Origin: Marsupella aquatica
Taxonomy: Eukaryota > Plantae > Marchantiophyta
Direction of reading: 5' to 3'
Length of the DNA: 64,000 nt
Assembly (NCBI GenBank): GCA_973895155.1
Contig: OZ316891.1
Coordinates: 21,030,169-21,094,168 of the forward strand
The position numbers and the translations under genes are program-made. Positions within the stretch are counted from its first letter, which is position 1; each line of letters starts with the position of its first letter. Of the stretch, positions 4,301-61,249 are shown one piece after another. The notes under the pieces were generated by a model, which made no database searches, was not told where the DNA came from, and worked only from the letters and a program-made list of their open reading frames with translations.

Positions 4301-4380
4301 AAACCTAACCCTAACCCTAAAACCTAACCCTAAAACCTAACCCTAACCCTAACCTTAAACCTAACCCTAAACCTAAAACC
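4301..4380. repeat. Telomere-like CCCTAA/CCTAAA tract just upstream of the outer gag ATG
   Basis: aaacctaaccctaaccctaaaacctaaccctaaaacctaaccctaaccctaacc... directly before ATG 4389. Confidence 0.85.
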
Positions 4381-4388
4381 CATAAGAC

Positions 4389-12000: not shown

Positions 12001-15000
12001 TACCCCTATGGGGAAAATCATTAAAGAAACCCTTTTCTCGTATCCTTGCGGGTTTTATGTAACTCATATTGAATGCCTGCATAACAATGCCAACACAAGC
12101 GAATTGCATGCGCTTTGGCATGCACGCCTCGGCCACCCCGGCCAATCAATGCTAACCAAAATCATTAAGAATTCAAGAGGCATTCCAATCAACACACGCC
12201 ACATTCCAGCGAGCACCCCATGCACTGCATGCTCACGCAGCAAATTAATAACAAGGCCCACGGCATCAAAATTGCCAACTAAAATACCCCAATTCTTGGA
12301 AATCATCCATGCAGATGTTTGTGGGCCAATTAACCCTCCGAGCGGACCTTTTTGCTACTTTATGGTATTAATCGACGCATCAACTAAATGGTCAAATGTG
12401 ACCCTACTTTCAACGAGGAACATGGTTATACCTCGCATCTTGGCGCAAATCTTGCGCGTGAAAGCACAATTCCCAGATCACCCCATTAAGACACTAAGGG
12501 TGGACAATGCAGGGGAATTCACATCCGAAACATTTGACAACTTTTGCACATCACTTGGCATCGATGTACAATATCCTGTACCCCACGTGCATTTCCAGAA
12601 TGGATTAGCTGAAGCTGTCATTAAATGCCTTCAGCTCATTGCACGCCTACTACTAATGCAGTCGAAACTCCCCGTCTCAGCATGGGGACATGCCATATTA
12701 CAGGCTTATGCATTAATCCAATACCGCCCATCGGCTTTTAATACCTATAGCCCATACCAAATTGCTAATGGTATCAAACCTGACCTATCACATCTTCGTT
12801 CATTTGGATGTCAAGTAATGGTCCCCATTACTCTACCCAAACGAACCAAGATGGGACCCCAACGACAATTGGGGATATACATCGGATTCGACTCTCCGTC
12901 CATAATCTGATATATGGAGCCAACAACTGGCAACGTTTTTAAATCCAGATTCCTAGATTGCCATTTCGATGAACATGTTTATCCATCATTAATAACCCCT
13001 AAACACTCACAACCACCTTTGAAGTGGGAAAGACATTCGCCATTTTGGCAAGACCTTAGAACCAATCAAGGGGAGAAAGAAGTTCAGCGAATTTTGCAAC
13101 TCCACAAGATTGTGGAAGAACTTCCAGACGCTTTTGTCGATACATCACAAGTTACCCGCTCACATATTCCAACTGCGAGAGCATCTGCTCGCATCGAATT
13201 ATCAAGTGAGCTAGCAAATACATCCCAGCCTCGTGCCAAACGTGGCAGACCCTTGGGATCAAAGGATAAACAACCAAGAAGGCGTGGTTCATCTATACCA
13301 CCTTCACCTAATGTCGATCATAACGAATCCACAACTCATGAGGAGATTTCTATCCACTACGCACACACCGGTGAGATGTGGGATAGAAATACTACTTCAA
13401 TAGATGATACTTTTGCATTAATGGTGGCAACACATATCACAGACGAAACACCCAAACCAATATCCATCTTAGAATGCCAAAACAGACCAGATTGGCCTGA
13501 ATGGCAAAAAGCTATAAACGAAGAATTAGATTCCCTACTAAGCAGACACACTTTTGGCCCAGTTGAGCCAACACCCCAAGACGTACATCTCATTGGCTAC
13601 AAGTGGATATTCGTCCGAAAAAGAAATGATAAAGGCCAAGTTGTACGCTACAAAGCACGTCTGGTAGGGAAAGGATTTACCCAACAACCGGGAATTCATT
13701 ACGATGAAACTTACTCACCGGTTATGGATAGCACAACATTTCGATACCTTATCGGATTTGCCATTTTCCATAAACTACAAATGCGACAACTGGATGTTGC
13801 AACCGCATATCTATATGGAACTTTAGACACTTGTCTATACATGCGATCACCTCCCGAGTTGGAGCAACGTCGCCGAGCTCTAGCTCAAGGCGCTAAATCG
13901 CATATCCCATATTTACATAAGATTATAACACAATTATCTCAAGTTACACCTCATGTGTCATCTACACATGTAACTCATAACAACGACACCGCTGTGTCAA
14001 CCGTACAAAATACTCGCCGCGGACTAGCTATCCGCGTGTTGAAGGCATTATATGGCCTGAAACAAAGTGGCAGAGTATGGTATCAAAGATTTACTGATGA
14101 AATGATTACCATGGGTTTTTCCCATGATGCCATTACACCATGTTTATTTATTAAACATGTGGATGACGAATATGTCATCGTTTCTATTTATGTTGATGAC
14201 TCAAATATATTTGGGACACCCCAAATTACAGAAGATACTATTACTCGTCTTAAATCAACATTTGAGATGAAGGACCTTGGACATACAAACTTTTGTCTAG
14301 GATTACAACTGGAGATCTTGCCTACTAACATGATGCTCCATCAAACAACTCAAACTGAAAAGATCCTAAAACAGTTCAATATGAACCTAGCACACCCATT
14401 GACGTCACCAATGGTAGTACGTTCATTAGAAAACAATACCGATATTTTTTGCAAGCGCGAAGAATATGAACCACTATTAGGACCAGAAACCCCATATCTT
14501 TCTGCGATAGGAGCACTAATGTATTTAGCAAATCAGACCCGACCAGACATTGCATTTGCAGTTAACTTACTAGCTAGACATAGTGCAACTCCCACAGCCA
14601 CACACTGGAACGGAGTTAAGCACGTATTTAGGTATCTGCGTGGCACCACCGATACCGGGTTATTTTACCCATTAGGTGCAAACCACGAACTCATAGGATA
14701 TGCGGATGCCAGATATCTCTCCGACATTGATACCACAAAATCCCAAACTGGATATGTTTTTACCATAGGGGGTACCGCTTTTTCTTGGAAAAGCGTGAAA
14801 TAGACCCTAATAGCAACCTCATCGAATCACTCAGAAATCTTAGCTCTACATGAAGCTAGTCGTGAAGCCGTTTGGTTACGATCCTTTATAAATCACATCA
14901 ACACCAAATGCGGCCTACCACCACTAACAAAGCCTACTAACATTTTGAGGATAACGCAGCATGTATACAGCAGATCACGAAAGGATTCATCAAAGGCGAT

Positions 15001-18502: not shown

Positions 18503-18571
18503 TAATTACTCTTATGTCTCAAAGCTCCTCAGTCTCTTGCTCTGGATTAGCAGCTAAAAAAATCTCGCAGA

Positions 18572-19066
18572 ATGCCATCACCACGAATATCACCGTGTCT
18601 GTGGTTCGACGGAGTGGCAGAAGAAGCAGTCGAGTTCTACATTTCTTTCTTCAAAGACGGGAAGATCACCAACTCCCAGAGATATGGCGAGGCAGGGAGA
18701 GCCGTCCACGGCAAGGAGCCGGGCACTGTCAAGACCATCGCCTTCGAGCTGAACGGCCAATCGTTCACGGCCATCAATGGCGGACCGCATTTCAAGTTCA
18801 CCGAGGCCATCTCGTTTCAGATTGAGTGCGCTGACCAGGCCGAGGTCGACCATTACTGGGAGAAGCTCTGCGAGGGCGCAGATCCTAAGAGGCAGCGCTG
18901 TGGCTGGGTGGCGGATAAATTCGGGGTTTGCTGGCAGGTCGTTCCCACTGCTCTCAAGGACCTGCTCGCAGATCCCGACCCCGTGAAGGTGCAGCGCACC
19001 TTTCAGGCGATGATGACAATGACGAAGCTGGACATCGCTGCTCTCCAGTGTGCTCACGACGGTTAA
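18572..19066 (+). CDS. VOC/glyoxalase-superfamily PhnB-like protein (3-demethylubiquinone-9 3-methyltransferase family), 164 aa
   Basis: Motifs RISPCLWFDGVAEEAVEFY, FELNGQSFTAINGGPHFKFTEAISFQIEC, QAEVDHYWEKL, CGWVADKFGVCWQVVP and AMMTMTKLDIAAL. Intact, intronless, strongly G/C-ending codons. Confidence 0.93.
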   Translation: MPSPRISPCLWFDGVAEEAVEFYISFFKDGKITNSQRYGEAGRAVHGKEPGTVKTIAFELNGQSFTAINGGPHFKFTEAISFQIECADQAEVDHYWEKLCEGADPKRQRCGWVADKFGVCWQVVPTALKDLLADPDPVKVQRTFQAMMTMTKLDIAALQCAHDG

Positions 19067-43024: not shown

Positions 43025-44121
43025 CGCTAATTCCAATTCCAATCCCAGATGTGAATGTCCTCGTTTCTTCTCTAAGCCAACCGACTTCACCTAATAGACT
43101 CCGGGCATCGATAAGTGGCTATATAGCATCTGAAAAGCACGAGATATTAATTATGACAGATCCGCGACACATTGACTTTGACAACCACTCATTACAACCA
43201 ATGTGACATGAACTGAGGCAGTCAGTCAGAAACTAGTGGCCTCAAAAATGACCTCGTACCATGTGCCTCATGATCGAAGGATCGTCTTTAGCGCCGAACG
43301 AAGAGAGCCACTTTTAGTACGAGATAATTGCATCGTTTGCAGCTGGAAAGCAAAGATTGCCTAACCTTCTGAAGGCCAGCGAATCTGCTGATCGGCTAAT
43401 CGGCTAATTCAACTTGCACATCACCGCGGCCCTCAGCTACTCAATTCTGTAGCCATGGAATCTGGTTTCTTTATGTGCGTCACGCATTCAGGGCCAAGAA
43501 CGATCTCACGCCTCGATCCTTGCCTGGCCGGGCCGGACGATGCTAGCAGCAAGCACTACGGATGGCAAGTGTTGGTACACCGTGACCGAGTTCTCGTGCG
43601 TCGACCGTCCTTCGAGTTCAATGATCGACCCACTTTTAGCAAGAGACTGAGGGGTTCAGAATCTGTCCCGCCTCCAGTACTCCTAGGTCTGTTATTAGTC
43701 CAGTCAGTCGCAAGTGATGTGTCTCGTCACGGGAGAGCGGGGATCGGACGGAATGCAACCATGCTCTTGGTGGTGGAGCACATACGGTACTAATTAGCTC
43801 GATCACGCGGACTGGCCTCCATCATTCTCCATAGCTGTTGCTTCAAGTGAGCTTCAAACATCGAAAATCTGGTGTGCGGATGCATCTGAGTGTCAATTTC
43901 AGCGGAATTTCTAGGACAGAAGGGAATGAGCACCTCAAACGATTGACACGAGCTTTGCTGTCTGCTAGATTGCTGCTGGCGAAATCCATTTACTGTTGTG
44001 ACTCTCAGCAAGAGTGGACAGAATGTGAAACAAACATGTGGATACAAACAGCGAGCTCCAGAGTGCACAAGACCCCAGGCATCAGAGCTCTATCAGAATG
44101 TAACGACCATGTCCAATTGCA

Positions 44122-44560
44122 AGTAGAGGTCAGGTGAGATTGGCTTTTCAAGAGGTAGAGGGCGCTTGTGACTTTTTCTCACCAAAGCAAATTGGAGACT
44201 CAGTTTGTTCTATCTAAAGATAGACACCTGACCAAAAGCCTTTTGGAATTAAACTTTCCCAGAGTCAATGAGTAAGACCCAAAAGTGTGTGGAGCGGTCT
44301 TTTTTAATAGATGATAAATTCTCCTTGTGAATTTCTTGTAAGGCCCTTGTGACTGGGCCTTGTGGGCCGTCATCAATCAAGCTCTAAATAAGGGATCCAG
44401 CCAAAATTCATCCATAGGCTGTTTACAGAGCTTGTAGAGGTCAGGTGAGTGACTTTTCAAGTGGTAGGGAAACTTGTGACTTTTTCGCACCAAAGCAAAT
44501 TGGAGAGTCATTTTGTTGTAAAGAGAGTCTCTAAACCAGAAGTGTTTTGAAACGAAACTT
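44122..44560. repeat. Diverged direct repeat of ~130 bp
   Basis: gtagaggtcaggtgag...cttgtgactttt...caccaaagcaaattggaga at about 44123 and 44434. Confidence 0.75.
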
Positions 44561-47154
44561 GGATAAATCGTTATTCCGAGAATGAATGAGGGAACAAGAA
44601 TTTACCAGGCTGCCCTTGACCAAAGAGGGTTTGGTCACAATAGGCTGAACTTAAAAATAAAATATTGGATTTATTTCACTTGTGTCACCAATGGGAGTGT
44701 TTTGTTGGTAATGGATGCAAATGAGGCTCAATTTAGAGTTTAGCCAATAAGAAAAATGAGGGGACAAGAAAGTACTATTATATATTTTTCGGTGTTTTCA
44801 CACCGGCACTTCATCCACTCATAGGGTTGCTTGAACAATTTTCCCCAAATGGTAATAAAAAGCATTTAGGAATTTGCACCTAGATAAATGAGCTCAAACA
44901 TATTCTTTAAGACTCCCTAAAAGTGTGAGTATCCCCAAAAAAAGAAAGTAAATAATTTGTCTTGTAGTGGTTACCCCTGAAAAAGATTCTCTTTTGAGAA
45001 AATTAATTAATCATTCCTTTCAAGAGAATGAATTTTTTCGTGATCACTTTAAAGCAAGCAAAAATTAGGTTTGGGTGACTTTGTACTGTCTTGTGCCTCA
45101 ATGTTTAGTCCTTTGCAAAGTGTATTCTCTTCAGTGCTTATTCCTTTACAAAGCGTTCGCTTCACTACTATCCCCACTTGTAATTTTTCTGTTAGACAGC
45201 TGTTTAGCTTCTAAACTACTTTGCATCCCTTTCCGAAAAATGGTGAGCCTCTCATGTTAGAGACAAATAAGTCACTCAAAATCATAAACTTAGGAAATAG
45301 AACTTTGAACTGTAGTTAAGAGATGAGGGGTTTGCATTTTCTGAAGTGTTGGTTTTTCACACCCCCTGGGATTCAGTCAAGCATTTGGAAGGAGATAGCT
45401 TAGGGTCTAGGTTTCCATAGCATATGAAAATTTAATTTAATATAACTTCAATGTAAGAAGAAGAACAACATATGTTAACAACAGATGGGCAAGATTGAAA
45501 AATAAATATAGATCTAAAGAGGGGGATCTAAAAACGAAAATTATAGCCTCTGGTTGGTTTTTTCCCCGGCCTTTTATAAACACCCTTTTATTTAATAATA
45601 AAAATATAATAATAATAAAAATAATAAATTGCAAACATCAAGAGGGGGGTAAAAAAGAAAATTATAAACATAAAGAGGGGTAAAATAAATTACATAGTTC
45701 AAAAATTCAAAGGATGCACCTTGCGTAAATTAAATTGAAATAAAAATACATATCAAAAATCTTAATAAGACAAAGTAACTTGAGTAGTCTCCCAAAGAAA
45801 TAATACCTATATGTGGTGCCATTAGAGTGTATGCCAATACATAGAATTATATCCCAAGGCATGTATCCATGAGGAGGAGGGAAGCCGAGATGAAGGAAAG
45901 GCACAGGCCCGAGACTGCCAGGAGGGGAAAATATCCTGAGGAGAAAGGAGGAAAGGCACAGGCCAAAATAACCCCTCACTAGCGTGGCCCGTCGATTTAC
46001 TGATTTAATTCTGCGTGACACTTGTCTGCATTAGAGCTGAGACTCCTGTCAACCATAAGTTTTTGAATCATGATTTGCCAGGTTTTCACTTTTCACTGAG
46101 TGACCCGTCCTCTCTTTGGGGGCCATGGCCTAGACGGCCCTTCGGTACCATGGAGGAAACCATCAAGCACCGTTTTGCTAAAGTAGGCAATTAAATTATC
46201 CACACATTAAATAGTAGTTCACATTGCAGCTGGTTTTGTGATTGATACTAATTATGGTTGCCTTGGTAAGTTTGGCAACTGTTTCAAATGTCAAACATTG
46301 ACTTGTCCATTTTTGAAAAAAAATTCTTTAGATTTGGAGGTCCATCTAGGCTTCAGTTTCTAGACAACAACCTCTAAAATAACATGGAGGTCCACGGATT
46401 AATTTACTTAGGGGGTCTCCATGACAATGTCTCTTATAAACACTAGCCCAAAACCCACCTTTCGATATCAACAATTGGTGAGAATAAAAACAAGCTAGTT
46501 CACAACTAGGGATGGTAAGTTTATGCCCCTGCCTGGCTAGAGTCAACTGCCTAGAGGGTTCATTCTAGACCATAGCCCTCTTCTCTTCCTGACTCTAAGT
46601 TAGATTCATGATTGTATTAAAAAGTGCTATGGCTTTGTGATGTAAAGCACCTTTCAGGGGATTTTCCAAGTTCTTGAGTCAATCTATACACACTATTATA
46701 TCCAATCCAGCCATTTAGTTTGTTTACGGCTTGCCATCTGGGCGGGAAGAAATCCTGGAGGTTAATTTAGAATTTTTTTGGGTCACAATTCAATTGGCCA
46801 AAACCACCTCTCAGAGAGCACTATGCCTTGCTGTCCGTGGCCCACCCTCACTAATCTGCAATGGGCTCAAAGCTCTTGAACAGTGTGAATGGGGAATTAA
46901 TGTTACTAACAATGACAGAGGAATAAGGCTGGGTAGGGTTTCACTTTAGTAATTAAGACTCTGACTAAAGCTTTGTGTTAACCCAGAGGTTTCACTCTAG
47001 ACTCTAACTCTAGCTTTGTGTTCGCCTCTTTTATAAGTAAGATTAGTATGCCAACCCCGGTTTGATGTGACGGGCAACTTGCCGAGTTGCCGGGCACGTA
47101 AACTCGGCATTTGCCGGCCTGAAATGCTCTCATTTGACGCATATTCATCATTAT

Positions 47155-47740
47155 TCCCCGGCTCGGCCCGAACTCCTCCCGGCCTCTTCCCGGACCCGGC
47201 CCGGCCCCCCCCCTACCTCTCGTCACCCGGCCCCGGCCCCGGCTTTACGCCCCGGCTTTACATCCCGGCCCGGCCCGGGTGGAGGAAGGCCCGGGTGGGG
47301 GGAGGGAGGAGGCCCGGCCTGGGTGGAGGGGGGCCCGGGTGGGGGGGGGGAGGAGGCCCGGGTGGGGGGAGGGAGGGGGCCCGGCCCGGGTGGAGGGGGG
47401 CCCGGGTGGGGGGGGGGAGGAGACCGGGTGGGGAGGAAGACGAGGCCCGGGTGGGGGGAGGGAGGAGGGCCGGCCCGGGTGGAGGGAGGCCCGGGGGGGA
47501 GGAGGCCCGGCCCGGGTGGAGGGGGGCCCGGGGAGGGGGCGGACGAGGGCCGGGTGGGGGGAGGGAAGAGGGCCGGCCCGGGTGGAGGGAGGCCCGGGTG
47601 GGGGGGGGAAGGAGGCCCGGCCAGGGTGGAGGGAGGCCTGGGTGGGGGGGAGGAGGGAGGCCCGGCCCGGGTGAAGGGAGGGGTTGGAGCAGGGAGGAGG
47701 GAGGCCCGGCCTGGGTTAAGGGAAGATAAGCCCGGGTTTT
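47155..47740. repeat. Left GC-rich subterminal repeat array
   Basis: Many copies of ggcccgg(cccgg)gtgg(a)gggg. Confidence 0.9.
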
Positions 47741-47939
47741 AGAGTTATGGATAAACTCAATTGAGATCAGCCATATCTGCTAATTTGGGGTTGTGACAAT
47801 TTCTCGCCTATCTAGTATTTCAACCCCGCTAAATATAGAACATTTTTTCATTCTAAATTGTATAAAACTTTGAGTTTTTCTCATTAGACACACTTCACTA
47901 AAAGTAGAGCACTCTATGTAAAGAGATAGAAAAGACTTT

Positions 47940-48330
47940 TGTGCGCGCGTGCTTGGAGGTTTTACTCGGCATGTGGTAATCCGCATAATAATTTTCTTCT
48001 TATCCCTTAACAATTTAGTGGTACTTGTGGGTATCGTGAAACAAATTTCGACAATGTTGACATTCATGTACGCATGTTTGGAGCTAAAGCTTGACATGTG
48101 ATATTTTACATGATTATCACTAATTGTCTCATATGTTTTCACTATATCGACAAATGCTCATTAAATTATAGATATCACATACGTCGGATAGGAATGTTAA
48201 CAACCAGAAAACAAAAGAGAACCGCTGTGCGCATGTTTGGAGTTTGACTCGACGTGTGATATTTCACAATAGTTTTTTTTTCTCGTTTTATTGTTGTTAC
48301 TTCAAAAGACTAACAAATAATCATTCAATT
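47940..48330 (+). promoter_or_regulatory. Upstream region of the transposase with three copies of a ~37-bp motif; inverted homolog of 55330-55710
   Basis: Approximate consensus CGCATGYTTGGAG-N5/6-CTYGRCATGTGRTA; ttggag cores at 47953, 48078 and 48237. Confidence 0.6.
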
Positions 48331-48398
48331 TTTATTAAGTGACTATGTTTAGTGACGTATAAAAAGTCACTTTGTGTGTAAAGTTCTTGTTTTCAATC

Positions 48399-51256
48399 AT
48401 GTCTTCCGAAGAAGATGAGTCGGGCAACTCATCAGCTCATTCTACTCCTATTAGGCACGGTGGAAATCACAATCAAGATCGTAGTGCAAAATTTTCCCCA
48501 GTGTGGAAATATTTTGAACGATGTGATACGCCATCAGCGTGTAATGATATTAATCGTATATATCGAAGATGCAAATTTTGTAAGAAATATACAACGCATC
48601 ATGCAACACGAGCAAAAGCACATTTGATGGGAAACATACACAAAGGAGATGCGCCACCTTGCACACACTTGTATGGAGTTGTTCACTTAGATGACATCAA
48701 TAGAATGTACAATGTCATAAAGGTTGACCCATCCATAAAGTACAAACGAAGTGATGGAAGTCATGTTTTGTTATCCATAAGAGGTCGTAGGTCATATAAC
48801 CCATCTTCCAATTCGCAAGCATCAACTCGAGACTCAAATTTTGTTGACCTCGATGAGGATGGAAATATGAGTCATCGAAGTAGAGCATCAAATTTTGCAA
48901 ACCCAATCATGGATGCTTATCAAATTCCAAATACAGCTCATTTGGATAAGCTGTGGGCCAAAGTTTTTTATTCAAGTGGTATTCCGTTCAATGTGTCAGA
49001 GAATCCTTTCTTCCGTGAAGCAGTCACAGAAACCTCGAAAGGGATTGTAAATGGATATTCTCTTCCGGGTATGCAAAATTTGAGAATGAAATTATTGGAG
49101 GAGGCTAGAGTTGATCTTACAAAGGACATGACAAAAACAATGAAGGAGGCAAAACCTTTTGGATATTCCCTTTCATCCGATGGATGGGAAAATATCCGAA
49201 GGGAACCTTTGATGAATGTCATGTTGTTGAGTTCAAAAGGAGATTTCTTTTTGGATAGTTGGAACGCTGCACAAGCCGACAAGAAAGATGGGAAGTATCT
49301 TGGTGACATGTGGTTAAAATACATAGATGACATTGGCGCCGATCACATCATACAAATTGTTACCGATGGTGCACCTGCAAATCGTGTAGCAGGTGAAGAG
49401 ATAGTCATGAAAAAATATCCGCATGTGACATGGAGTTGGTGTGCTGCCCACATTTTTAATTTGTTGCTAGAAGACATGTATGGCCACAAGAATGTTGTGC
49501 TAGATGAGCGGAAAAAAAATCCATTCAAAATGATTTTTAAGCACTTGAGATGGATAGTTAAAGCAGTTACATCATCACAAAAGTTGTCTGCAATATTTGT
49601 GAGGAAATCTGGTGACAGGAAGTTGTTAAATCCAAATGCAACGAGATTTGCAACAAATTTTTTAATGGCGCAGAGAGCATTGGAGCTAAGAGGAGTTTTA
49701 CAACAAATGGTCATTGATGATAAGTGGCAATCCTATCGTGATCGCCTGCCAGTTCGACCAAAGTCACAGGGGCATATGACGAGGGGAAAGGCAGACGAAC
49801 TTAAATCGTGGATACAGCAAGATACATTTTGGGCTCAAGTAAAATCTACAGTTGCTTTTTTCCTGCCGTTGGTGAAGATGTTGCGAGAATTCGATGGAGT
49901 TTCACCACAGTCTCCTTGGCTATATTGGAGCTTGAAAAAAGGAATAGCTAAACTAGAGGCGAGCATGGAGGGTTGTATATTAGTAACAGATTACTTAAAA
50001 CCAAAGATAATGAAAGTGTATATGGATCGACGAAAATTACTTACTACTGATTTCATGTTAGCAGTAGCATATCTAAATCCTCAATTTTTCTTCGATGAAG
50101 ATGAAGATGTGGCAGGAGATGCAGAACTGTATAGAGGCTTCAATGATTACGTTCGTAGATATGCAGAACACAAGGTGAAGGCAGGAATCAACCATGATCG
50201 AGATGTGACGACACTTATTTCTGACATCCAAATGCAGGCATTTGAGGCTAAAAAAAATTTGCCAAATTCATCGGTTGCAATTAGAGGAGCACAATCGAAT
50301 ATTGGGAAATTAAGTCCAGGAGAGTGGTGGTATTTGTATGGAGCTGATTACGCGGAGCTAAGATTGATGGCGAGAAGAATCACGCATTAACAAATGTGTG
50401 CATCTTCATGCAAACGAAATTGGAGTTCGTATGACTTTATCCATTTAAAAAGCCGTAATAGGTTGACCAATGATCGGGCAAAAGACTTGGTTTTTGTATT
50501 CACAAATTCGAGGTGCAAAAAGGGCTCACAAAGGTGAGAAACCCTCATACGTCTATATATAGACGATATGATGAAAGAACAACAATAAATGATGGCCCGA
50601 GGCCTACTTCCATAGAAGGATGTCACACTGAACAACATGGTGTTACATGTGCGGCTCTTGGAGAGGATGACGTGGAGGATTTTGATACAATTGATGATGC
50701 AGATGAGGCTTTGCAAGGATTATCATTACACACTGATAGTGATATGTTGACTCGTATTCCACCAGATACTGAAATAAGTGATGTTGGAGAATGGGAAGAT
50801 GAAATGGATTTAATGATGTTCCCTGCAATCGATGAGTCTCAAATTCAGGATGACGAGGACTACTCATTTGATGCAAACTTTGTAGTGCCTTCCCAACCAA
50901 ACCCATCCTTCACATACCCAACATTGAATCTACAAAATGATGTCCAAGCAAGTACTTCGTACTTATTTCAACGACGAGGTACTGCATCGGAGCTCTGTCC
51001 TGAGAGAACAACACCAACTTTGTTTGCGCAACCTGATGATGCACAGTGGGGACAACATGCTTCTCCAACAAAAAATATGTATGAAAGACAGAACATGACA
51101 AATCCATGTACATCAAACATACATGCCCGTGTTGGGGCATTTCAAGAATATCATAGCGCAGATCCGGTCCAATGGATGACAAGACAATTTCAATTTGATC
51201 GACAGTTGCAAGAAAATGAGAACAATAACACAAGGCACTTTTCGTCACAACCTTGA
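48399..51256 (+). pseudogene. hAT transposase (BED zinc finger, DUF659/DDE core, dimerization domain, acidic tail), inactivated
   Basis: VWKYF..CKFC..KAHL (BED), SSDGWENIRREPLMN, IVTDGAPAN, CAAHIFNLLLED, TRFATNFLM, YLNP, WWYLYG. Premature TAA at 50388-50390, then ASSCKRNWSSYDFIHLKSRNRL (the catalytic E of CERNWS reads K), a frameshift near 50510, and a tail ORF ending at 51256. Confidence 0.92.
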
Positions 51257-51368
51257 TATCTATTTAGGTATTACATGCTAGTACTATACGACAAACTATG
51301 ATATACTATGCCGGATTGTGCATGTCCTATGCAATAAAATATGCTATACTAAACATTGTGTGTGCAAT

Positions 51369-53294
51369 CTACTCATTTGGGTTCTCATTGTCTTGCGCTT
51401 CTGCTTTCACCTCTGCCAGTTGTTGACGACGACGATGGCGACGAATAGATCGCTGCATGTTTTGCTCATCTGTTGTTGGTCGATTGGCCATGGCATATTC
51501 CTTCCACTGTTGGAATCTACCGCTGAATAGCAAATTGTCAAAGTCACCATCTGACAAGTTATATTCATTAACTGTGAAGTTGTCAATGGGCCTTGAATCG
51601 ATCTGTGTCATTGCAATACTCTCTTGAGTCATGTCTTCAGTGTCTTGCTGTGTCTCCATTGGTGGCATTTGTTTCAACAAACCTCGTTGCTCATACTCTC
51701 GTTCATGAAATGGTTTCCGACACCAACATTTTCGGCTCTTCTTCATCCACCGAAACAAGCAAGCATGATGCCATAAGTGACCGCATGTTCCCAAAATGGA
51801 AACAGATTCAGGACCCCATGGATACAAGCACCAAGTACATCTTCCATCCTTTTCTCGAACAAATTGGGCCATACTTTCATCGGTCTTCCACTTATCAAAA
51901 AATTTCTCTACATCTTCTAGATCCTCCTCCACATCCGGAAAAAGATGAGATTCTCCTGTAGGATCAATCATTTGCAAGTTCATATAATTATAGTTCTTGC
52001 ATCTTGATTTTTCCTTGTCTGACTGCCCATCCACCTCAACAATGTTCATTTGCTCGATCTCCTCTTGCAGATTGCTTATGATCACCTCTTGTGATGTAAC
52101 CTGATTCTTCAAATCCTGAATGACTCTATCTGCCTCTTAAACTTGTTTCATTTGACTACATTGACCATCCTTTTGAGCAAGTTGTTTGTTGAGCTTTGCG
52201 ATCTCCTCCATCTTGTCGTACAGTTGCACCTTGTATTCCTTCACCTCCGAAGTAATCACACTTTGAATGAGCATTTTTTCCATTGCTTTCATGTTCAAAA
52301 CATTATCTTGCAACTTTGACTTGTAGTAGTCAATGCTGCCAGCTTCACAAAGGTCAAGACAAAACTTTGTGCGGAGATTGTTCTCGATCAAATGACCAAT
52401 CTCTGTGCCCAAACTCTTGCACACAATCTCCATGCTCAATGATTCTTTCTTTGGATCCAAAATACCAGTGAACTTTCCTGGTAAATTGTTACTTGTAGAT
52501 GCTGCAATGTTTGATGTTTTGTCCACATGTTTTGGTGCGCTGAAACTTTCAGATTTAGTGAAGAGTCGTTCCAGTGCAGTCGGCTTATCTTTCTGATGTG
52601 CATGAATATCTTGCACATCATGTATCTTTCTTTTTGACCCTTTGTTGGTTGCTTGACTCGACATATCTTTTGTAGTATTTTTGTTGTTCTTGAAACCTGC
52701 AATGTCCAGGACAGACTGATGCACAGAGTGAGTCATCTTGCCCTCTTCTGTTTCCCAACGGTAATCCACCTTCCACTTGAGAATAAATTCAGCAATTAGG
52801 AGTCGGAGAAAAGGAGAATAAACCGAGCTTGTTTTGCCTTGCGCTTTCTTTGGAGCATACTCTCGAAATCTTTGCTGCCAATGCTTGCCAATTTCCACAT
52901 GTTTTACCTTGGACATTGTGTACTTCTCTTGCATCCAAGACCTTGTGGCCCATAAATTTTCATCATCAAAAATGATTTTCATCCATTTTTGGAACTCCAC
53001 ACGTGACATCAATATCTCCAATTCTTTGGCGTTGATGGGCCATTCATTGTGAGGAGGTTTCACATTTGGCATTGTGATATTCCATTCAACATCCTTGGTG
53101 TCCTCATCCATTTTGGTTATGCTTTGCCCTGCATGATTGCTACTCATTCCAATGTCCTCGTCTATGGGTTGAGAATCTTCTTCAACGTATTGATCCTGAG
53201 ACCAAAGGTGTAAATTCTGAGCAGGTTGCAAATATAAATATGAAATCTTTTTAGGTTTTTCCTCCTCGTCGGATTCCAAATCCCATTTTCCCAT
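51369..53294 (-). pseudogene. Coiled-coil plus C-terminal RING-H2-variant protein (~640 aa, putative E3 ligase) with one in-frame stop
   Basis: ORFs 52137-53336 and 51369-52112 are in the same frame and separated by one TAA (...QMKQV*EADRVIQDLKNQV...). RING-like CTWC-x14-CGHLWHHAC-x10-CWC. Likely start MGKWDL at 53294, after a splice acceptor at 53306. Confidence 0.75.
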
Positions 53295-53478
53295 CCTTGC
53301 AGATTCTACAATAACAAAAACATTTTTAGCATTCATTCACCATACACCCTTCAAGATAAAATTGATAACAAAATACAATGAAGCAAAATGAGTAATACAT
53401 TTAATTCATATGACATGATTAAATAGATAATAGTTTATGACATCTATCATTGTCATTCACGATGAAATTATGAAATCC

Positions 53479-55137
53479 CTAATCTCTTAGATAAGGACTA
53501 TTGTGCTGAACTAATCTACAATCTTGGAATGTCCTCATCATTCTCAAACTCCAATTAATACAATCCATTCTTTTTTTGACATCAATGGCCATCATGTCAC
53601 GTATCATAATATCCAATTTAGGGCCATGCTCTCTAGCATTCCAACCCCTATTCAAATATCGTGTCATTGGGGTCATTCCATCCCAATTTTCTATGAGTAA
53701 TGTCTCAAAGACATTGCCCAAAGCATATATGTCAGTTGCTTGACTGTACTCTGTTGGATCGGAACGAACTAGCTCAGGCGCCAATTGTGGATATTGTTTT
53801 TGATATGCAACTGCTTTCTCTGTAGGGGTGGGCCACATTCGATTTTGTGGTAATGTGCATTGTGACTTGTGTTTGGACAACCCAAAATCATATATTCCTA
53901 CATAAATTCTAATTGCCAAATCATCCTCGTGATCAAAGTAAAGAAGGATGTTCCCAAAATGAAGATCACAATGGAAACGGTCGTGTGCATGCAAATATTG
54001 CAAGGTCTCCAATAGAGCCATAGCAATCCCCAAACGATGTTCCAAAAAGAGTTTCTTTTCGGATATGAATGTCACATCAACCTCAGAAGTGGATTGTGTC
54101 TTCCCTTTGCTCTTACTCCATTTCTCACACTTATCTATGAAGCTTCCCAAGTCTCCTCCATTGTAATGGTCATAGATAAGTTTCGGTGGATCTTCGATAG
54201 TCATTGCCAAGGCCCCAATTATTCCTTTGTGATTCAAACCTCCCATGAGCACTTCTTGTAAGGCATCTGTTCGTCTCTTGTGCCGGTCTCCATCCTTAAA
54301 TCGTTTTGTAACCAGTGTTGCATTTCGAGGAATCAATGGGCAATCCAATATATGACATATGAACACATGTCCTTGGATGCCGCTTCCAATGCGATGCAAA
54401 TTTGATACTTGCTCCCTCCTCAAGAAATGAATACTCCTGACCATGGGAACAACTCGTGATGGACGCGTTCCTCTATCTGCAACCTCCACACCAATCTCTC
54501 CAAACTGCACGACCTTGCTCGCATATTTGACATTACTCTCCGATTTGGCCATTGCTAACTCTTTGCTCCATTTAGCTAGCAAATCTCTTCTATGTGTGTA
54601 TAGCCCAGGAACTCCAAGCATGACGGCCCCAGCCTCATCCAAATTGGATTCCAACTTGTCCCAAAGATTTACCGCAAAGTTCAACGCCAAATATTCAACA
54701 AATCCACCCGGCTTCTCAAAATCACTTATTAAGGCAGCAATTTCATCTCGGGTCATGTCCTCTTCTTTCTCCACAGTCTCACGCATGCAACGTCCCATGT
54801 CATTTAAAAGGTTTTTGTAACCCTCTGCTCCATGCATAGCATACTTCCTCTCAAAGCCATCCTGCTCATACTGTGCTGACAAAGTGTAGGGATATAGAAT
54901 CTTTTTCCAAATCGCAACTAACACATGTTGCCTTCTCTCTTTCAATGCAGCACCAATTGCTCCTCCTCTATGTTTCCGTTTCCCTAAGGTTTTGCCATGT
55001 TTACAAATTTCTAAGGTTTTGTGAGCATTCCGTAGAGCATTGAGGGCATGAGGATCTGGTTGATATCCCTCGTTTAGCATGGTATTCATTGCCTCAAAAA
55101 GTTTCATATACTCTACACTCACATTTGCATCGGCCAT
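53479..55137 (-). CDS. Protein kinase (ePK fold) with unknown N-terminal domain, 552 aa, intronless, inside the hAT element
   Basis: IGSGIQGHVF (Gly loop), LVTKRF (catalytic Lys), LQE, HCDLHFGNIL (catalytic loop), DFGLS, LAPE, TDIYALG. Basic GKRKHR segment in the N-terminal half. First ATG (MADANV) is at 55137. Confidence 0.9.
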   Translation of the reverse strand: MADANVSVEYMKLFEAMNTMLNEGYQPDPHALNALRNAHKTLEICKHGKTLGKRKHRGGAIGAALKERRQHVLVAIWKKILYPYTLSAQYEQDGFERKYAMHGAEGYKNLLNDMGRCMRETVEKEEDMTRDEIAALISDFEKPGGFVEYLALNFAVNLWDKLESNLDEAGAVMLGVPGLYTHRRDLLAKWSKELAMAKSESNVKYASKVVQFGEIGVEVADRGTRPSRVVPMVRSIHFLRREQVSNLHRIGSGIQGHVFICHILDCPLIPRNATLVTKRFKDGDRHKRRTDALQEVLMGGLNHKGIIGALAMTIEDPPKLIYDHYNGGDLGSFIDKCEKWSKSKGKTQSTSEVDVTFISEKKLFLEHRLGIAMALLETLQYLHAHDRFHCDLHFGNILLYFDHEDDLAIRIYVGIYDFGLSKHKSQCTLPQNRMWPTPTEKAVAYQKQYPQLAPELVRSDPTEYSQATDIYALGNVFETLLIENWDGMTPMTRYLNRGWNAREHGPKLDIMIRDMMAIDVKKRMDCINWSLRMMRTFQDCRLVQHNSPYLRD

Positions 55138-55329
55138 GTTCTCAAGTAACCACAACAAGTTGTAGGACAAAGAATAGGCGCTTACGGAGTGTGTTGGCTG
55201 CTTGCCGAGGGTATGGATGATGCAAGTACAATAAAGCTGGATCAATAATCCTGAAAAGTCATTTCACACTTTGTGTTGGTACCAATAATACCCAAGCAAT
55301 GAAATTTTAATATTTGTTCAATTTTTTAT

Positions 55330-55710
55330 TCGTTTGTTTAGTACTTTGAAAGTAACAACAATGAAGGGGAAAGACAACTATGTGAAATACCACATGCCAA
55401 GCCGAAACTCCAAGCATGCGCACAAAAGATGTCTTTTCCTTCAAGTTGTTACATTCCTATTCCAATCTATGTGAAACCTATAGTTTAGATGTCATTTGTA
55501 AATGTTGTGGAAATATTTACAAGGAATCGAGATATCCATGCAGAGTACCACATGCCGAGCGGAAACTCCAAGCATGCGTACATGAAAATCTCTATCCTAG
55601 AAAATACTCCACTCAATTCACAAATCACACTAAACTGTTAAGGCAATATTAGGTTCTCTCATACGAAATACCACATGCCAAGCATAAGCTCCAAGCATGC
55701 GCATACGTGA
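55330..55710 (-). promoter_or_regulatory. Upstream region (predicted 5'-UTR intron) of the cargo genes with three copies of the ~37-bp motif
   Basis: taccacatgccRagc..ctccaagcatgcg with ctccaa cores at 55408, 55566 and 55689; aligns by eye with the reverse complement of 47940-48330. Confidence 0.6.
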
Positions 55711-55848
55711 GAACACTAATATCCCTCCAAATTAAAACTAAATGTTAAAGTCATACATGGCAAAGCATAGCAAAAAAAGACTCAAAACAATTCAAAAACT
55801 AGTGAACTAAACTCAAAACTAAGCAAAACATAAGCAAAAGCAAGAAAA

Positions 55849-55936
55849 ACTTACCAAAAGCCTCTCCTACAAAACAAGCAAACTTAGTTGAGAAGTTAGT
55901 AATGAGAGAAAGTGAGGAGACCTCCTCACTTTATAG
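55849..55936 (-). promoter_or_regulatory. Putative TATA box and non-coding first exon for the cargo transcript
   Basis: Minus-strand CTATAAA at 55936-55930, a pyrimidine-rich leader, and donor TG|GTAAGT with GT at 55854. Confidence 0.5.
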
Positions 55937-55939
55937 CCC

Positions 55940-56575
55940 TGGTCCCGGTCTCATCCCCCCCACCCCACCTCGCGAGCCGACCCCGGGTGGCCGAGCCCGA
56001 TCCCCCCCGGCGGCTGCCCTCCTCGCGCGACCTAACCCTAAAGCCCCCCCCGGCCCGGCCCACCCCCGCCTGACCCGGGGGGGCTTTAGGGACTGGGGCG
56101 GAGGGGGGGGCTTTAGGGTCCGGGGCGGGAGGGGGGGCTTTAGGGCCGGGAGGGGGGGGTCCGGGCCGGGGGGGGGGGTCCGGGCCGGGGGGGGCTTTAG
56201 GGTCCGGGGCGGGAGGGGGGGGGGGGGAGCTTTAGGGTCCGGGCCGGGGGGGGGCTTTAGGGTCCGGGGCGGGAGGGGGGGGGAGCTTTAGGGTCCGGCC
56301 GGGGGGGGGGGCTTTAGGGTCCGGGGCGGGAGGGGGGGGGAGCTTTAGGGTCCGGCCGGGGGGGGGCTTTAGGGTCCGGGCCAGGAGGGCTTTAGGGTCC
56401 GGGCCGGGCGGGGGCCTTTAGGGTCCGGGCCGGGAGGGTGAAGGGTCCGGGCCGGGGGAAGTTTAGGGTCCGGGGCCGGGAGGGAAGAGGACCAGGAGTA
56501 CTCAGGCCGGGACCGGATTTACTCGGGCCGGGACCGGATGATGACGACCGGGAGAGACCGGGTGTCGGCTTGCCG
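55940..56575. repeat. Right GC-rich subterminal array with TTTAGGG-containing units
   Basis: (g)n-ctttagggtccggg repeated more than 10 times between about 56080 and 56475. Confidence 0.9.
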
Positions 56576-56673
56576 GTTGACGGCCTTAAAACGGCCTATT
56601 TGCCGGGCAAGTCCAAACCGGGATGCCAACAACTTACTGTAGATGTGTAAATAAATGTAAGATCTTTTATTTC

Positions 56674-57060
56674 CTAGCTACCCGAGAGCCCCAACAGAAC
56701 ACCTGCCCGAGAAAAAACCAGGTCAGCCTGACGCAGGTCCGGAACGCCTTTCTTGGGTAGAAGGAAAGAGATGTTGTTGCTCCATAGCAACATGTTAACC
56801 AGAGTCCCGGGCAATGGCAGCAACCACATCCCGAATGTAATCATCATCAGCTTGCTCCTGTGGCTGCACCTAAGAATATGAACACCGGATGGGTCCAAAG
56901 ATGCCCCACATACACAAGAGGGTTGGCGGAGGAGGCAAGGGTGAGGGAGGCCCAGACGAAGGGGCATAGTCGTGGTGAAGAGGAAGGAGACAAAGGCGCA
57001 TAGACATGGTGAAGAGGAAGGAGCAGACTCTTTGCTGTGGATCGATCCTCAAGATATGTC
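56674..57060 (-). mobile_element. CRE-like non-LTR retrotransposon fragment (Zn knuckle and start of restriction-like endonuclease)
   Basis: LRLGLPHPCLLRQPSCVCGASLDPSGVHILRC (CxC..H..C) followed by RQADLV. Confidence 0.6.
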
Positions 57061-57759
57061 TGGCTGTCAGCTGATCACAGAGCGAAGTCTACCTCTCAAT
57101 GATTTGTGATTCAGTAGGACCACTTAGTACGTTTCTAATACACCAAAGAATGAATCCATCGCTTCCCAAAATCTGGATCATGTCCTCTTCGACACAGCAA
57201 AAAAATTGAGAAGTGTGCTTTCGTACTGAATGTCCGCCTCAATCCTCTCCTTTGCCAACTGTATGGCCAACTGTATGGCCCGCTGTATGGAGTTGCCATG
57301 GAGTCACCTCTCGACTCACCTGCCCTCAGCAGGTTGAATACGTGCCGCAATTAACTCCATTGTGATTGTTTTCATTCCTTGAAAACGAATGGCAAGTTGC
57401 ACGAATTCCGTGTCACCATAATGAAGGCAGTGGCCAGAGACACCATTGCCAGTGCACCTGCAAACATGAATTCCTGTATAGCTCCAGGAATACAGGCACA
57501 GACAGCCATGGAGCCAATTCACCAATTTTCTGGACACGGTATGAATGAGATTTCTGACATTTCGATTGCATGAGCATTAAGACTACCGAAAAATACGTAT
57601 CTCGATTCTTACCAGCTGAAAAATTTGGTTGAGAATTAGTCTTGACCCCGGATTGCGGAAATGCACGTCTGGGAAATGGAAAACCTGTCGGAGGGAGAGA
57701 GACTTAGGGAACACTGTAGCCAGAAATGGTAAGATCCGCGGGGTTGAATTTTGGGGTCA

Positions 57760-58176
57760 CAGTGATAGTTTAGGTGGCGTTGGGGGATGTGAAAAACATG
57801 GAAATCGCAAGCCTGGCAAAGGGGGAAGAATGGGTTTCGCTGACAAGTTGATTCCAGGGAACCGAGGAAGGGGGATATTCTGTGGGGGAAGAGTTGGCTT
57901 GCAAATGCAGGCCTTCTAGGGGCTTCACTGGAGGATGGAGAATCCGGACACTCCGATGCCTGGGGTGGTGACTTCGCTCGGAAGTCGGGGCAAGGAGAGC
58001 TTCGGGAGTTTGGGCAAAGACAGAGAAGGCATCGAAACATAAGGGAGACACGGCAAGTCTGGTCCGAGCGACACTTTATACTCAAATTCACTGGCAGACG
58101 AGGCCTCTGCGACAATGCACAGAACCAACGCCAGTGCACCCATCAACGTACAAGGCTTGGTGCTAATCGCAGGCAT
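57760..58176 (-). pseudogene. Secreted Pro/Leu/Lys-rich protein gene, copy A (83-aa ORF, Pro-rich frame continues past stops)
   Basis: MPAISTKPCTLMGALALVLCIVAEASSA (signal peptide-like) and LPKLPKLSLPRLP. After stops the same frame reads PTLPPQNIPLPRFPG...PILPPLPG. Confidence 0.55.
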
Positions 58177-59909
58177 GGTTAACGATCGACCAACTTACCT
58201 CAAAATATCAAAGTTCCCCCACCCGCAAAACACATTATGTCATTCAAGGTTTAATTTAGCTCCTTTGATAAGGTTTTGGGCCCCCATTATTTTCATACCG
58301 TGAAGGTGTATAATGCATTCTATGAACCACGCTAAACTTGTGCGCCATGGTCGTAGCAGCTTTTGACTCCTCAATGTAAGTTAGCCCACAAAGAATCCCA
58401 AAGGGCAGCTCGAAAGCAGAATCTACAACGTACTGCGGAGTCTACCCTGGACCGATCTGACTCAAAAATGCGCAAGATTGCTCGATCGGTTGGGCTAAAG
58501 CGTGATCCATATGGTGCTACTGCAGTTTGATAATATGCTATTGTGAGGCGGGTTGCTAGGTGGTTTAGAGACTCCTTCTTCCTGATTTCAACTCCACCGT
58601 CTTACCGTCGCGGACTCACTACCACTTCTCTCCTGACCCCAGAACCTTTGCTAACTTCTCCACTCTCTGCCACGCAAGGAAGATATTAATTAATGAGCGC
58701 GCAAGAAAAAGTATTTCAGGTATACATAAAATCCTCTAGACGCTCAAAGTCTGAACCGGACGTACTGTTCCCACTGAGACTGGCCTCTTGGATACGGGCT
58801 TGGATATCGAAATGAGCAGGACAGCTATGGAGCAGGACAGCCATACGGAAGAGTGATCGGACCTCATCAAGTTGTCATGAGGACCGATTCATACAGTTAG
58901 TATGAACAGAGCAATGTCTTATTCACAATTATATGAATCAAAGTACTTGGTTACCAGATCGATGTGCGATTGATGAGTGACTGAAGCGCTTGTGACTAGA
59001 AGTTCAGGAGCCATATACCTCACTGTCCTTCGGAGTAAGGTACCACATGAGCGGGCGCGCGATTATTTCGAGGCAAAATCATAACTTATAACCAATGAGC
59101 CCAGTGCTGTCTGTCCTTACTTTTGAAAACGCATGTTTACAGCTTTAGACGATTATACCATTTGGGTTGGAGCCCAGTGTTAATCCACCACGCATTGAAA
59201 CTATATATTGCTCTTGTGACACACGGATCATTCTGATGGGAGTTCAAATCTTAGGCCAACAAGCTGGCTAGGAAGACTGATCACCTTCGTGTCATAAATT
59301 ATGTATCCAAATTCAGGGACAGTTCGTCATAGATGTAGCGCGTTTTGAACGATTTCGGAGAGGATCTTGGTACAAATTTTCTTGTACTTTACATCCAAGT
59401 CTGGGGAATTCGGGTAAATACCTCTTTGCTGAAGTCTGGGTCCTTTGAATTTACTTCAAGCCCATTTGCAACCTTGGGAAACACGGACAGTCTAGTTCAA
59501 CTACTAGGCATTCATGTTTGGGGATCACTCTGATGAATGCGTTCAAGAGCGGGTTCAAGAGCGGGTTCAAGAGCTTTAGAAGCATTGCATTTAAACTCTT
59601 TCTAAGCTGGAGATTGCCTGCCAGCAGAACTTTTCAAGAATTAATTCGATCCGTATACGTCTTCAAGGAATGACCTCATTCGATTGGAAGTGAGAACATC
59701 ATGCAGTTTAGGAGACAGTGCTTGGTCGGGACATTGCGATATGTGCTGCCCAGTTTTCAATCGAGCAAGTTGTATAGCCCGCAAATGCTTTGCCGCTGGA
59801 TGTAGCCAGGTAGCATGCTGCATGATACGTCCGAAGAGCGAGTGAACTCGAGCCTAAAACTATCAATGCCAGATACATCTACGGTTTCATAGGACGTCGA
59901 CCATAGGCA

Positions 59910-61249
59910 GTGAGAGGAGGATTCATGGATTGCAAGAGCTCGCCCAGAAGCAGTTTGGGGATCTTGGCTCGGGTAACGGTTCACATGTTCAAGGAAAGTG
60001 CGAGGCTGACTTCATCGGCACTCGTGTTGCTGCCGTTCACTATGATGGTGTTTGACGGTGATATGAGATACCACAATCATAGTAATTCTTTAGTTGAGGC
60101 AACTGATTTGAGTGGGGACCTCAGTAGTCTGTGTGCGGCTATCGTGGACAGCACTGGGTACCCTTGCATTGAGCACACGGTGCAAACAGCGGACGGCTAT
60201 GTGCTCGGTCTACAGAATATCCCCTGCGGATTACATAATTCCGGGGAAATGGTCACCAAGCGCCATCCAGTCTTTTTACAGCATGGTCTAATTGAGGATG
60301 GGGATGACTGGGTGCTCAATTCTCCAGAAGAGGCGTTGGCGTACTTGATGGCGGACGCAGGCTTCGATGTGTGGATCGGAAACACTCGCAACACCCGTTG
60401 GACTCATGGGCATGTGTCTCTCTCTAAGCAATCTCAGGATTATTGGAACTGGAGTTGGGATGAGCTTGCAGCTTATGACCTGCCCGCATCTCTCTCCTAT
60501 GTGTATCGAATGACAAACTATACCAAACTATGCTACGTTGGCCACTCCATGGGGACGTTGACAGTGCTTGCAGCACTCTCTGAGGGGAAATCTGAGGTAG
60601 TGGAGAGCCTTGAAGCAGTCGCATTGCTAAGTCCGATTGCTTATGTGGGTAATATTTCCTCACCCTTGGTACAGTTGGGGGCCAATCTCTACATAGACAA
60701 GATTTTCCAAGAATTTGGTCTCACTGAATTCTCCTTGTCAAATGCTGTGGGGTTAGAGTTGCTCTCGTTGGCCTGTGTCACACCGGGTATTGAGTGCGGA
60801 GACTTACTTTCAGCAGTAACAGGGTCCAATTGTTGTCTCAACACCTCTCGAATACCCTACTACCTGCAATTTGAGCCTCAATCAACATCCCTCAAGAACA
60901 TGGTTCATTTTGCCCAAATGGTAAGGAGGGGAACATTTGCGAAGTACGACTACGGTGAAGAGGAGAACAAGGTCAGATACAATCAGCCTTCTCCACCACC
61001 CTACGACGCGTCGAACATAGATTCATCGATTGCCATGTTGATTGCGTATGGAGGCAAGGATGCAATTGCTGATTCGGAAGATGTGACTAGACGTCTTCTC
61101 CCATTACTTTCGCCTGGTAGGCTCCTTGAAGTTCTTTACCTGCTGACTATGCGCACTCAGACTTCATTCTCGGGAATACAGCATACGAGGACCTGTACCC
61201 CCATCTCATCTCCTTCTTCCGAACTCACCACGTCTCGCAGCTAGAGTAG
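59910..61249 (+). pseudogene. Acid/triacylglycerol lipase (alpha/beta-hydrolase, gastric-lipase-like), intronless, with a frameshift before the catalytic His
   Basis: VQTADGYVL, VFLQHGL, DAGFDVWIGNTR, WSWDELAAYDLP, YVGHSMG nucleophile elbow, GGKDAIAD. The DYAHSDFILG motif is out of frame after about 61143 and ends at TAG 61247-61249. True start uncertain (ATG candidates at 59925, 59985 or later). Confidence 0.88.

Follow-up and report, generated by a model that had tools for sequence, protein, structure and literature searches.

Transposons which carry genes beyond the transposase have been described in more than one superfamily, and one of them, MuDR, has a convergent layout. MuDR (mudrA/mudrB) and the VANDAL elements (VANB/VANC) contain extra open reading frames (ORFs), repeated short non-coding motifs and promoters in their terminal repeats, are built on a Mutator transposase and, in the case of VANC, encode a motif-binding demethylation factor (PMC6446971, PMC5735166). 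In the TET-carrying hAT7 transposons of the fungus Puccinia an extra enzyme gene accompanies a hAT transposase, and in IS3EU elements an alpha-kinase gene lies opposite the transposase gene as a regular part of the transposon; accessory genes are described there as having passed between transposon superfamilies, and an escape from silencing is proposed (Kojima 2025, PMC12730594). Accessory genes in hAT elements, kinases opposite a transposase and accessory transfer between superfamilies were, on that report, already known (PMC12730594). Here we describe a 9567-bp hAT element carrying a protein kinase gene and a RING gene at positions 47056-56622 of a 64,000-nt stretch from the liverwort Marsupella aquatica (assembly GCA_973895155.1, contig OZ316891.1, positions 21,030,169 to 21,094,168; hereafter the window). 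Our preferred explanation, to which we give a probability of about 0.5, is that this dead copy belongs to a multicopy hAT family of 9.6-kb elements whose kinase and RING genes have long been conserved, are probably co-expressed with the transposase and probably aid the spread of the element by way of a host protein.

The original prediction for this locus had treated accessory genes as a feature of Mutator-type elements; the published hAT7 and IS3EU elements show that they are not confined to these (PMC12730594). The element resembles the hAT7 transposons in being a hAT with an extra enzyme gene, but those are fungal, have 7-bp duplications and encode a TET/JBP dioxygenase acting on DNA, whereas this one is from a plant and encodes a protein kinase and a RING protein (PMC12730594). 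It resembles IS3EU in the position of its kinase gene; IS3EU, in contrast, has a transposase of another superfamily (IS3-like), 6-bp duplications and an alpha-kinase rather than a PF00069/PF07714 kinase, and no RING gene is mentioned there (PMC12730594). Membership of IS3EU was rejected on the hAT transposase, the 8-bp duplication and the non-alpha-kinase, and membership of VANDAL/VANC on the transposase and on a Pfam scan in which the cargo matched only kinase and RING families, with no receptor, other domain or likeness to VANC; MuDR and VANDAL are regarded as functional analogues only. A literature search, from which Repbase and subscription journals were out of reach, found no hAT element with a kinase and a RING gene, and neither hAT nor kinase was matched in the main text of the Arabidopsis transposable-element product atlas and the gene-capture review (PMC13547354, PMC13317346).

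To place the ends of the element, 500 x 500 end pairs were scanned. It is flanked by an 8-bp target site duplication, ATGCCAAC, at 47048-47055 and 56623-56630, and this was the only one of nine eight-base direct-repeat pairs to border a long perfect inverted repeat (9 bp, compared to 0-1 for the others); the range first proposed (47044-56635) had taken in the duplication. The terminal inverted repeats (TIRs) begin with CCCGG, are perfect over 9 bp (47056-47064 on the + strand, 56614-56622 on the - strand) and are imperfect further in; on the left, short GGCAA/TTGCC motifs follow within a terminus spanning 47056-47120 (+). The predicted GC-rich subterminal arrays were found at 47150-47740 (80% GC, 36 CCGG) and 55930-56570 (77% GC). 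Of the 19 TTTAGGG units in the window, 13 lie in the right array, along with a single inverted one. In flowering plants, telobox motifs recruit Polycomb via TRB proteins (PMC11287191). The ORFs of high GC content at either end of the element were rejected as array artefacts, and no Rfam match was obtained in 44000-60000.

Independent contigs agreed with these ends. Contigs from organism A span both element junctions without differences, and a contig of run X5 matches exactly up to 56622 and then continues with 33 letters of another flank. In a contig from organism B only four letters separate 47055 from 56640; this empty site is five bases short of the expected length. In run X3 a joint of 47682 to 56433, the short side of which is only 26 letters, suggests a deletion derivative of the element.

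The transposase gene (48399-51256, + strand) matched DUF659 (Pfam, E 4e-29), as expected of the hAT transposase which had been predicted, and a search for relatives returned four clusters at 59-74% identity; among viral contigs none of 63 pattern matches was a relative. DUF659 and PF05699 were both found in the two full-length homologues scanned, a pairing which we take to mark the Tag1-like group of hAT. The catalytic core was located at D261, D323 and C348xxH351, Glu672 is present in other copies and in three of four homologues, and the protein ends in a long, acidic, Ser/Thr-rich tail, the open frame of which is conserved in relatives. A match to zf-BED at the N-terminus was weak (E 0.19, below cut-off). 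The element is like other hAT elements with DUF659 and PF05699 transposases in its short TIRs and subterminal repeats, its 8-bp duplication, its D-D-CxxH-E core and the dimerisation domain of its close homologues, and perhaps also in a BED-like finger; tests of duplication, ends and catalytic core all placed it in the superfamily. It differs from them in its length of 9.6 kb, its two extra genes, its CCCGG ends and a buried, inverted 450-bp block. The usual hAT ends begin with CAG or TAG, which is typical rather than defining.

Converging on the transposase gene are two genes of the - strand, the RING gene (51369-53294) and behind it the kinase gene (53479-55137); the gap between the transposase and RING stops is 112 bp, close to the 110 bp first estimated. 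Judged from its sequence, the window contains a dead copy of the element. In the transposase gene codon 664 (50388-50390) is a stop, the catalytic Glu at codon 672 (50412) is replaced by Lys and the frame shifts near 50511, and this is not the intact transposase which autonomous activity requires; a stop at codon 400 of the RING gene (52137-52139) splits it into 399 + 255 codons. The cargo had been described as full-length, which does not hold for the RING gene of this copy. These lesions are private to the window copy, as position 50388 differs from the window in all overlapping depth of runs X1 (4904) and X3 (5481), 50412 in 2630/2630 (X1) and 9302/9608 (X3), and 52139 in all depth of X1, X3 and X5 and in 289/315 in X2; neither stop occurs in other copies, which have retained the Glu. 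Part of the depth shows a one-base insertion at 50511-12, and all four homologues continue into the downstream frame, so that the family transposase has about 950 amino acids. Thirty-five positions at which nearly all other copies differ from the window were picked from 76 distinct positions, a part of a list with more than 1300 further rows. The window copy carries a change of C-to-T type at 29 of the 35, and 26 of the 31 coding changes alter the protein; this selection favours decay-like sites, and the counts show decay but give no rate.

The three genes were found to be multicopy to a similar degree. Median summed contig depth, which is no copy number, was 2536/3262/2243 (transposase/RING/kinase) in X1, 295/358/289 in X2 and 10807/5716/8002 in X3, compared to 38-55, 4-11 and 77-104, respectively, for contigs at the junctions or flanks, so that each gene stood at approximately 30-140 times junction or flank depth in each of three runs from two organisms. 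A family in which the other copies lacked the cargo would have told against an integral module; the kinase and RING genes were as deeply covered as the transposase. Physical linkage was seen in two contigs of run X5, at about 95-97% identity: the first runs across the ends of the transposase and RING genes (51058-51791), and the second spans the RING start, the kinase gene, the block upstream of it and the right terminus. Further contigs, 12-14% divergent, occur over all three genes and suggest a sister family which may have equal gene content. Depth in run X5 (organism C) was about 1000 or more at 49128-49909, 51474-51864, 52647-53037, 53820-54601 and 55384-55774; these are conserved gene parts and the motif block, hinting that organism C has its own diverged high-copy family. 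Calypogeia fissa, a leafy liverwort, was the only named source of relatives for kinase, RING and transposase. Seven C. fissa kinase entries lie on six large contigs, a distribution as would be expected for a dispersed repeat.

The kinase ORF (55137-53479) encodes 552 amino acids with a Gly-loop, beta3 Lys, alphaC Glu, HxD, Asn, DFG and APE, and it scored 53 bits with PF00069 (cut-off 32). The predicted full set of catalytic motifs was thus present, and the type was corrected to non-RD (HCDLH loop) with a domain like that of the tyrosine kinase-like (TKL) group, preceded by a helical N-terminal part of about residues 1-200. Since the kinase has both DFG and APE, a Haspin-like reading of its HCDLH loop was rejected. 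The closest solved structures were TKL and tyrosine kinases. The AlphaFold model was poor (mean predicted local distance difference test score, pLDDT, 51.4); a fold search with it against PDB and viral libraries gave no match at E <=0.001 (best Z 6.0), and neither this search nor Pfam placed the N-terminal domain in a known family or fold. Eight relatives at 44-71% identity were found by sequence search and 17 clusters at E <1e-30 by profile search, and none of 47 pattern matches in viral contigs or 22 in prokaryotic genomes was a relative. Each motif is kept in all aligned members covering it, except for APE, which is missing in 2/11. The open ORF of the window copy carries a few substitutions private to it; His400, a residue of distant homologues, is restored by the letters of other copies in 11/11. 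In a quick tree a core of 14 rows fell on one side of a branch (support 94), while the position of the metagenome locus L001 was not fixed.

Divergence was compared for the kinase only. Against locus L002, non-synonymous divergence (dN) was 0.33 and synonymous divergence (dS) 2.6 over 421 codons, giving a dN/dS of 0.13 or lower; against L001 the proportion of non-synonymous differences (pN) was 0.35 and that of synonymous differences (pS) was saturated. By this measure the kinase is under purifying selection, and neutral evolution, which would have spoken against the original prediction, was not what was observed. Passive capture, in which copies of host genes are carried neutrally as in Pack-type elements, is here largely refuted and is considered very improbable. 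Gene capture is common among plant DNA transposons (PMC13317346) and the window copy has decayed, but the kinase dN lies far below its dS and, across the family, the cargo frames are full-length and open at 43-71% identity to relatives with invariant catalytic motifs. Furthermore, no close host parent of the cargo was found among 5.8 billion or 1.8 billion proteins, and the best PDB match for the kinase reached only E 3e-8. The element was not classed as a Pack-type capture, having full-length genes, a transposase and no close host parent found. The original view of an integral module, rather than of single-copy host genes or captured fragments, was borne out by the depth of the three genes and by the kinase dN/dS. 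It is probable, and we hold it with considerable confidence, that the cargo is a selected, element-borne module, old rather than freshly captured.

The RING gene has 641 codons from 53294, in agreement with the coiled-coil/RING protein of about 640 amino acids which had been predicted, although the window copy is interrupted and its RING finger scored 25.8 bits in Pfam against a cut-off of 27.3. The protein consists of a conserved N-terminal domain, for which Pfam gave no known family, a coiled coil and a RING-H2-like finger in which all eight ligands are present, the final pair being C-x-C instead of the usual C-x2-C. zf-RING_2 matched 5/9 members and the best PDB match was RNF165 (E 5e-5), while the AlphaFold model was poor (mean pLDDT 36.5). 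A search returned three clusters at 46-47% identity. As in the kinase, residues of distant homologues are restored by the letters of other copies (P111 in 6/6, K348 in 7/7).

A common upstream region was found for the transposase and the kinase, in line with the prediction that the cargo has element-derived upstream DNA. Block A (47916-48367, +) and block B (55732-55268, -) lie inverted to each other and share 70% identity over 444 nt. Each contains three copies of a motif of about 42 bp (in block A near 47943, 48068 and 48227), approximately 123 and 160 bp apart, which occurs nowhere else in the window. Block A is the putative promoter of the transposase gene and block B that of a putative kinase/RING unit. 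Scores of 334, 181 and 162 were obtained for the upstream blocks, compared to maxima of 79, 73 and 62 in shuffled sequences. In a metagenome scan, in which 2/91 matches were confirmed, locus L001 was found to have a 48%-identical kinase behind a block of 62-64% identity with equal motif spacing; with a motif profile trained on the window alone, sites in L001 reached 36 and 31 bits, compared to at most 13.5 for shuffled sequence. VANC motifs diverge fast between families, whereas the upstream block here is 62-70% conserved across a 48%-identical kinase (PMC6446971, PMC5735166). The block is not repeated before the RING gene, which has an upstream space of only 184 bp, or before the DUF6729 gene of L001 (scores 37.5 and 49.5, under the shuffle maxima).

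In L001 the kinase is followed by a DUF6729, DDE-like gene in place of a RING gene or hAT transposase. This gene (2527-5521) lies in two frames, with AG two bases before its first ATG, and has a Cys-rich part and candidate catalytic residues D66, D142, D162xxH and E278. Dada transposases have an N-terminal CCCC finger and D-D-E residues with DxxH after the second D, and Dada inserts in small RNA genes; the candidate spacings differ (76/136 in L001 compared to 68/176), making the gene Dada-like at best, and no Dada transposase alignment was found in the supplement text searched (PMC3706591). No paper naming DUF6729 was found in the literature search.

This arrangement bears on the possibility of autoregulation, in which kinase and RING protein would modify their own transposase (activation, nuclear entry or timed destruction) and so tune transposition. 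In its favour are the shared upstream block, which suggests co-expression with the transposase, and the acidic, Ser/Thr-rich tail of the latter with its conserved open frame; yet a kinase of the same clade adjoins the unrelated DUF6729 protein, which a transposase-specific enzyme would hardly serve, and we consider this explanation unlikely. A host target was preferred over the transposase because in L001 the kinase family and its upstream block adjoin an unrelated transposase-like gene. Such host-directed action of kinase and RING protein, with activity and target guessed, we regard as evenly balanced.

The kinase and RING genes had been called intronless, and this holds for their coding parts; splice-like signals were found just before both start codons. 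A candidate donor, GTAAGC (55180-55185, -), precedes the kinase ATG by exactly 48 nt in the window and in L001 alike, and a candidate acceptor (53306-53320, -), T-rich and with TGTAG 11 nt before the RING ATG, has a counterpart at an equal distance from the ORF which follows the kinase in L002 (spacer of 182 nt compared to 184 nt in the window). The upstream translation of the homologue P0024 is compatible with equal acceptor spacing. The plant intron minimum is about 60-70 nt, so that the 48 nt from GTAAGC to the kinase ATG would be too short for an ordinary plant intron. The simplest model, to which we give slightly less than even odds, is that the RING gene is expressed by splicing out the kinase ORF; the intron may instead be short and local, or kinase and RING may form a fusion.

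Alternative products of one promoter would also suit a poison-antidote drive, in which the kinase would poison spores or gametes and be destroyed by the RING protein in those cells that inherit the element, to the advantage of its transmission in a haploid-dominant plant. Fungal spore killers make poison and antidote from one locus, and Spok proteins have a kinase domain; here a non-RD kinase stands beside a likely E3 ubiquitin ligase. Such a drive is nevertheless improbable, as the window copy combines a dead RING gene with an open kinase ORF (though this kinase could be silenced or damaged), no RING gene follows the kinase of L001, and tens of copies per genome would protect nearly every spore.

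Non-RD kinases are typical of immune signalling. The cargo could thus be a family of immune or stress-signalling kinase and E3 kept by the host, for which transposons are only a vehicle of diversification, and the kinase type and a wide second tier of related kinases are in favour of this. It is rather improbable given that the upstream block is common to the transposase and not host-like, that no receptor or other Pfam domain accompanies kinase and RING, and that the window cargo decays like the transposase, the C-to-T excess among the selected private changes included. The second tier comprises non-RD kinases with H[CN]DL..N.LLHF loops and unassigned N-terminal parts (P0054, P0059, P0061, P0063, P0072, P0073, P0077 and others). 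The five looked up all come from Logan assemblies; the kinases of this tier may be further transposon-borne families.

Several observations weigh against a selected, co-expressed module directed at the host. Both bridging contigs of run X5 are at depth 2 and are possibly carry-over DNA from a related plant, and the C. fissa RING and transposase entries among the matches listed lie on contigs of 27.2 and 9.1 Mb, not on the six kinase contigs. L001 has no RING gene within 5.8 kb after its kinase and no termini on its contig, and its status as a transposon comes from the DUF6729/DDE-like gene only. The peptide downstream in L002 matches RING N-termini weakly (14, 44 and 316 of 2000 shuffles; BLAST E 0.07), and the last ligand pair of the RING finger is atypical. 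The steps of the mechanism are inference.

Under the preferred explanation, blocks A and B would act as twin promoters firing inward. Block A would drive the transposase mRNA, and block B would yield kinase mRNA if unspliced and RING mRNA once the kinase ORF is removed by splicing from the donor at -48 to the acceptor 11 nt upstream of the RING ATG. The non-RD kinase would not depend on activation-loop phosphorylation; it might mark a chromatin or silencing factor of the host, which the RING protein might then ubiquitinate, both steps being guesses. A bolder proposal, which we consider doubtful, is that of a portable liverwort cassette of promoter and kinase (with or without RING) which moves between unrelated DNA-transposon superfamilies and combines twin-promoter co-expression, a splice switch of the kinase ORF and phosphorylation-directed ubiquitination of a host silencing factor.

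Other features of the window were also noted. Two decayed copia-type retrotransposon remnants lie at 4723-7698 and 10944-14803 (+), integrase and reverse transcriptase domains being confirmed in the second, and a telomere-like TAACCC/TAAACC array at 4300-4380. A single-ORF gene at 18569-19066 (+) encodes a 165-amino-acid PF06983 (3-dmu-9_3-mt) protein (E 1e-43), bacterial-like by impression and a possible horizontal acquisition. In the left flank of the element, 46000-46781 is another high-copy repeat (depth up to 35,000 in X3). To the right of the insertion, a short ORF at 56677-56967 (-) with a Cys/His pattern and no Pfam match lies in a stretch moderately repeated in the reads, and may be a remnant of a non-LTR (long terminal repeat) retrotransposon endonuclease. 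A 439-amino-acid, single-ORF, acid lipase-like gene (PF04083) at 59925-61244 (+) is without introns, which points to a retrocopy or to a gene poor in introns.

VANC and other known counter-defences of plant transposons act by binding DNA, and a post-translational counter-defence of the kind proposed here, if real, has not been described for plant transposons. Selection on a transposon-owned kinase and E3 across deep divergence would suggest that host proteins are under attack. The substrates of the two enzymes would then identify the host factors by which transposons are restricted in bryophytes, a group in which Polycomb, too, silences them (bioRxiv 10.1101/2022.10.24.513474). Kinase 'expansions' annotated as specific to a liverwort lineage, the C. 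fissa entries among them, may be transposon genes.

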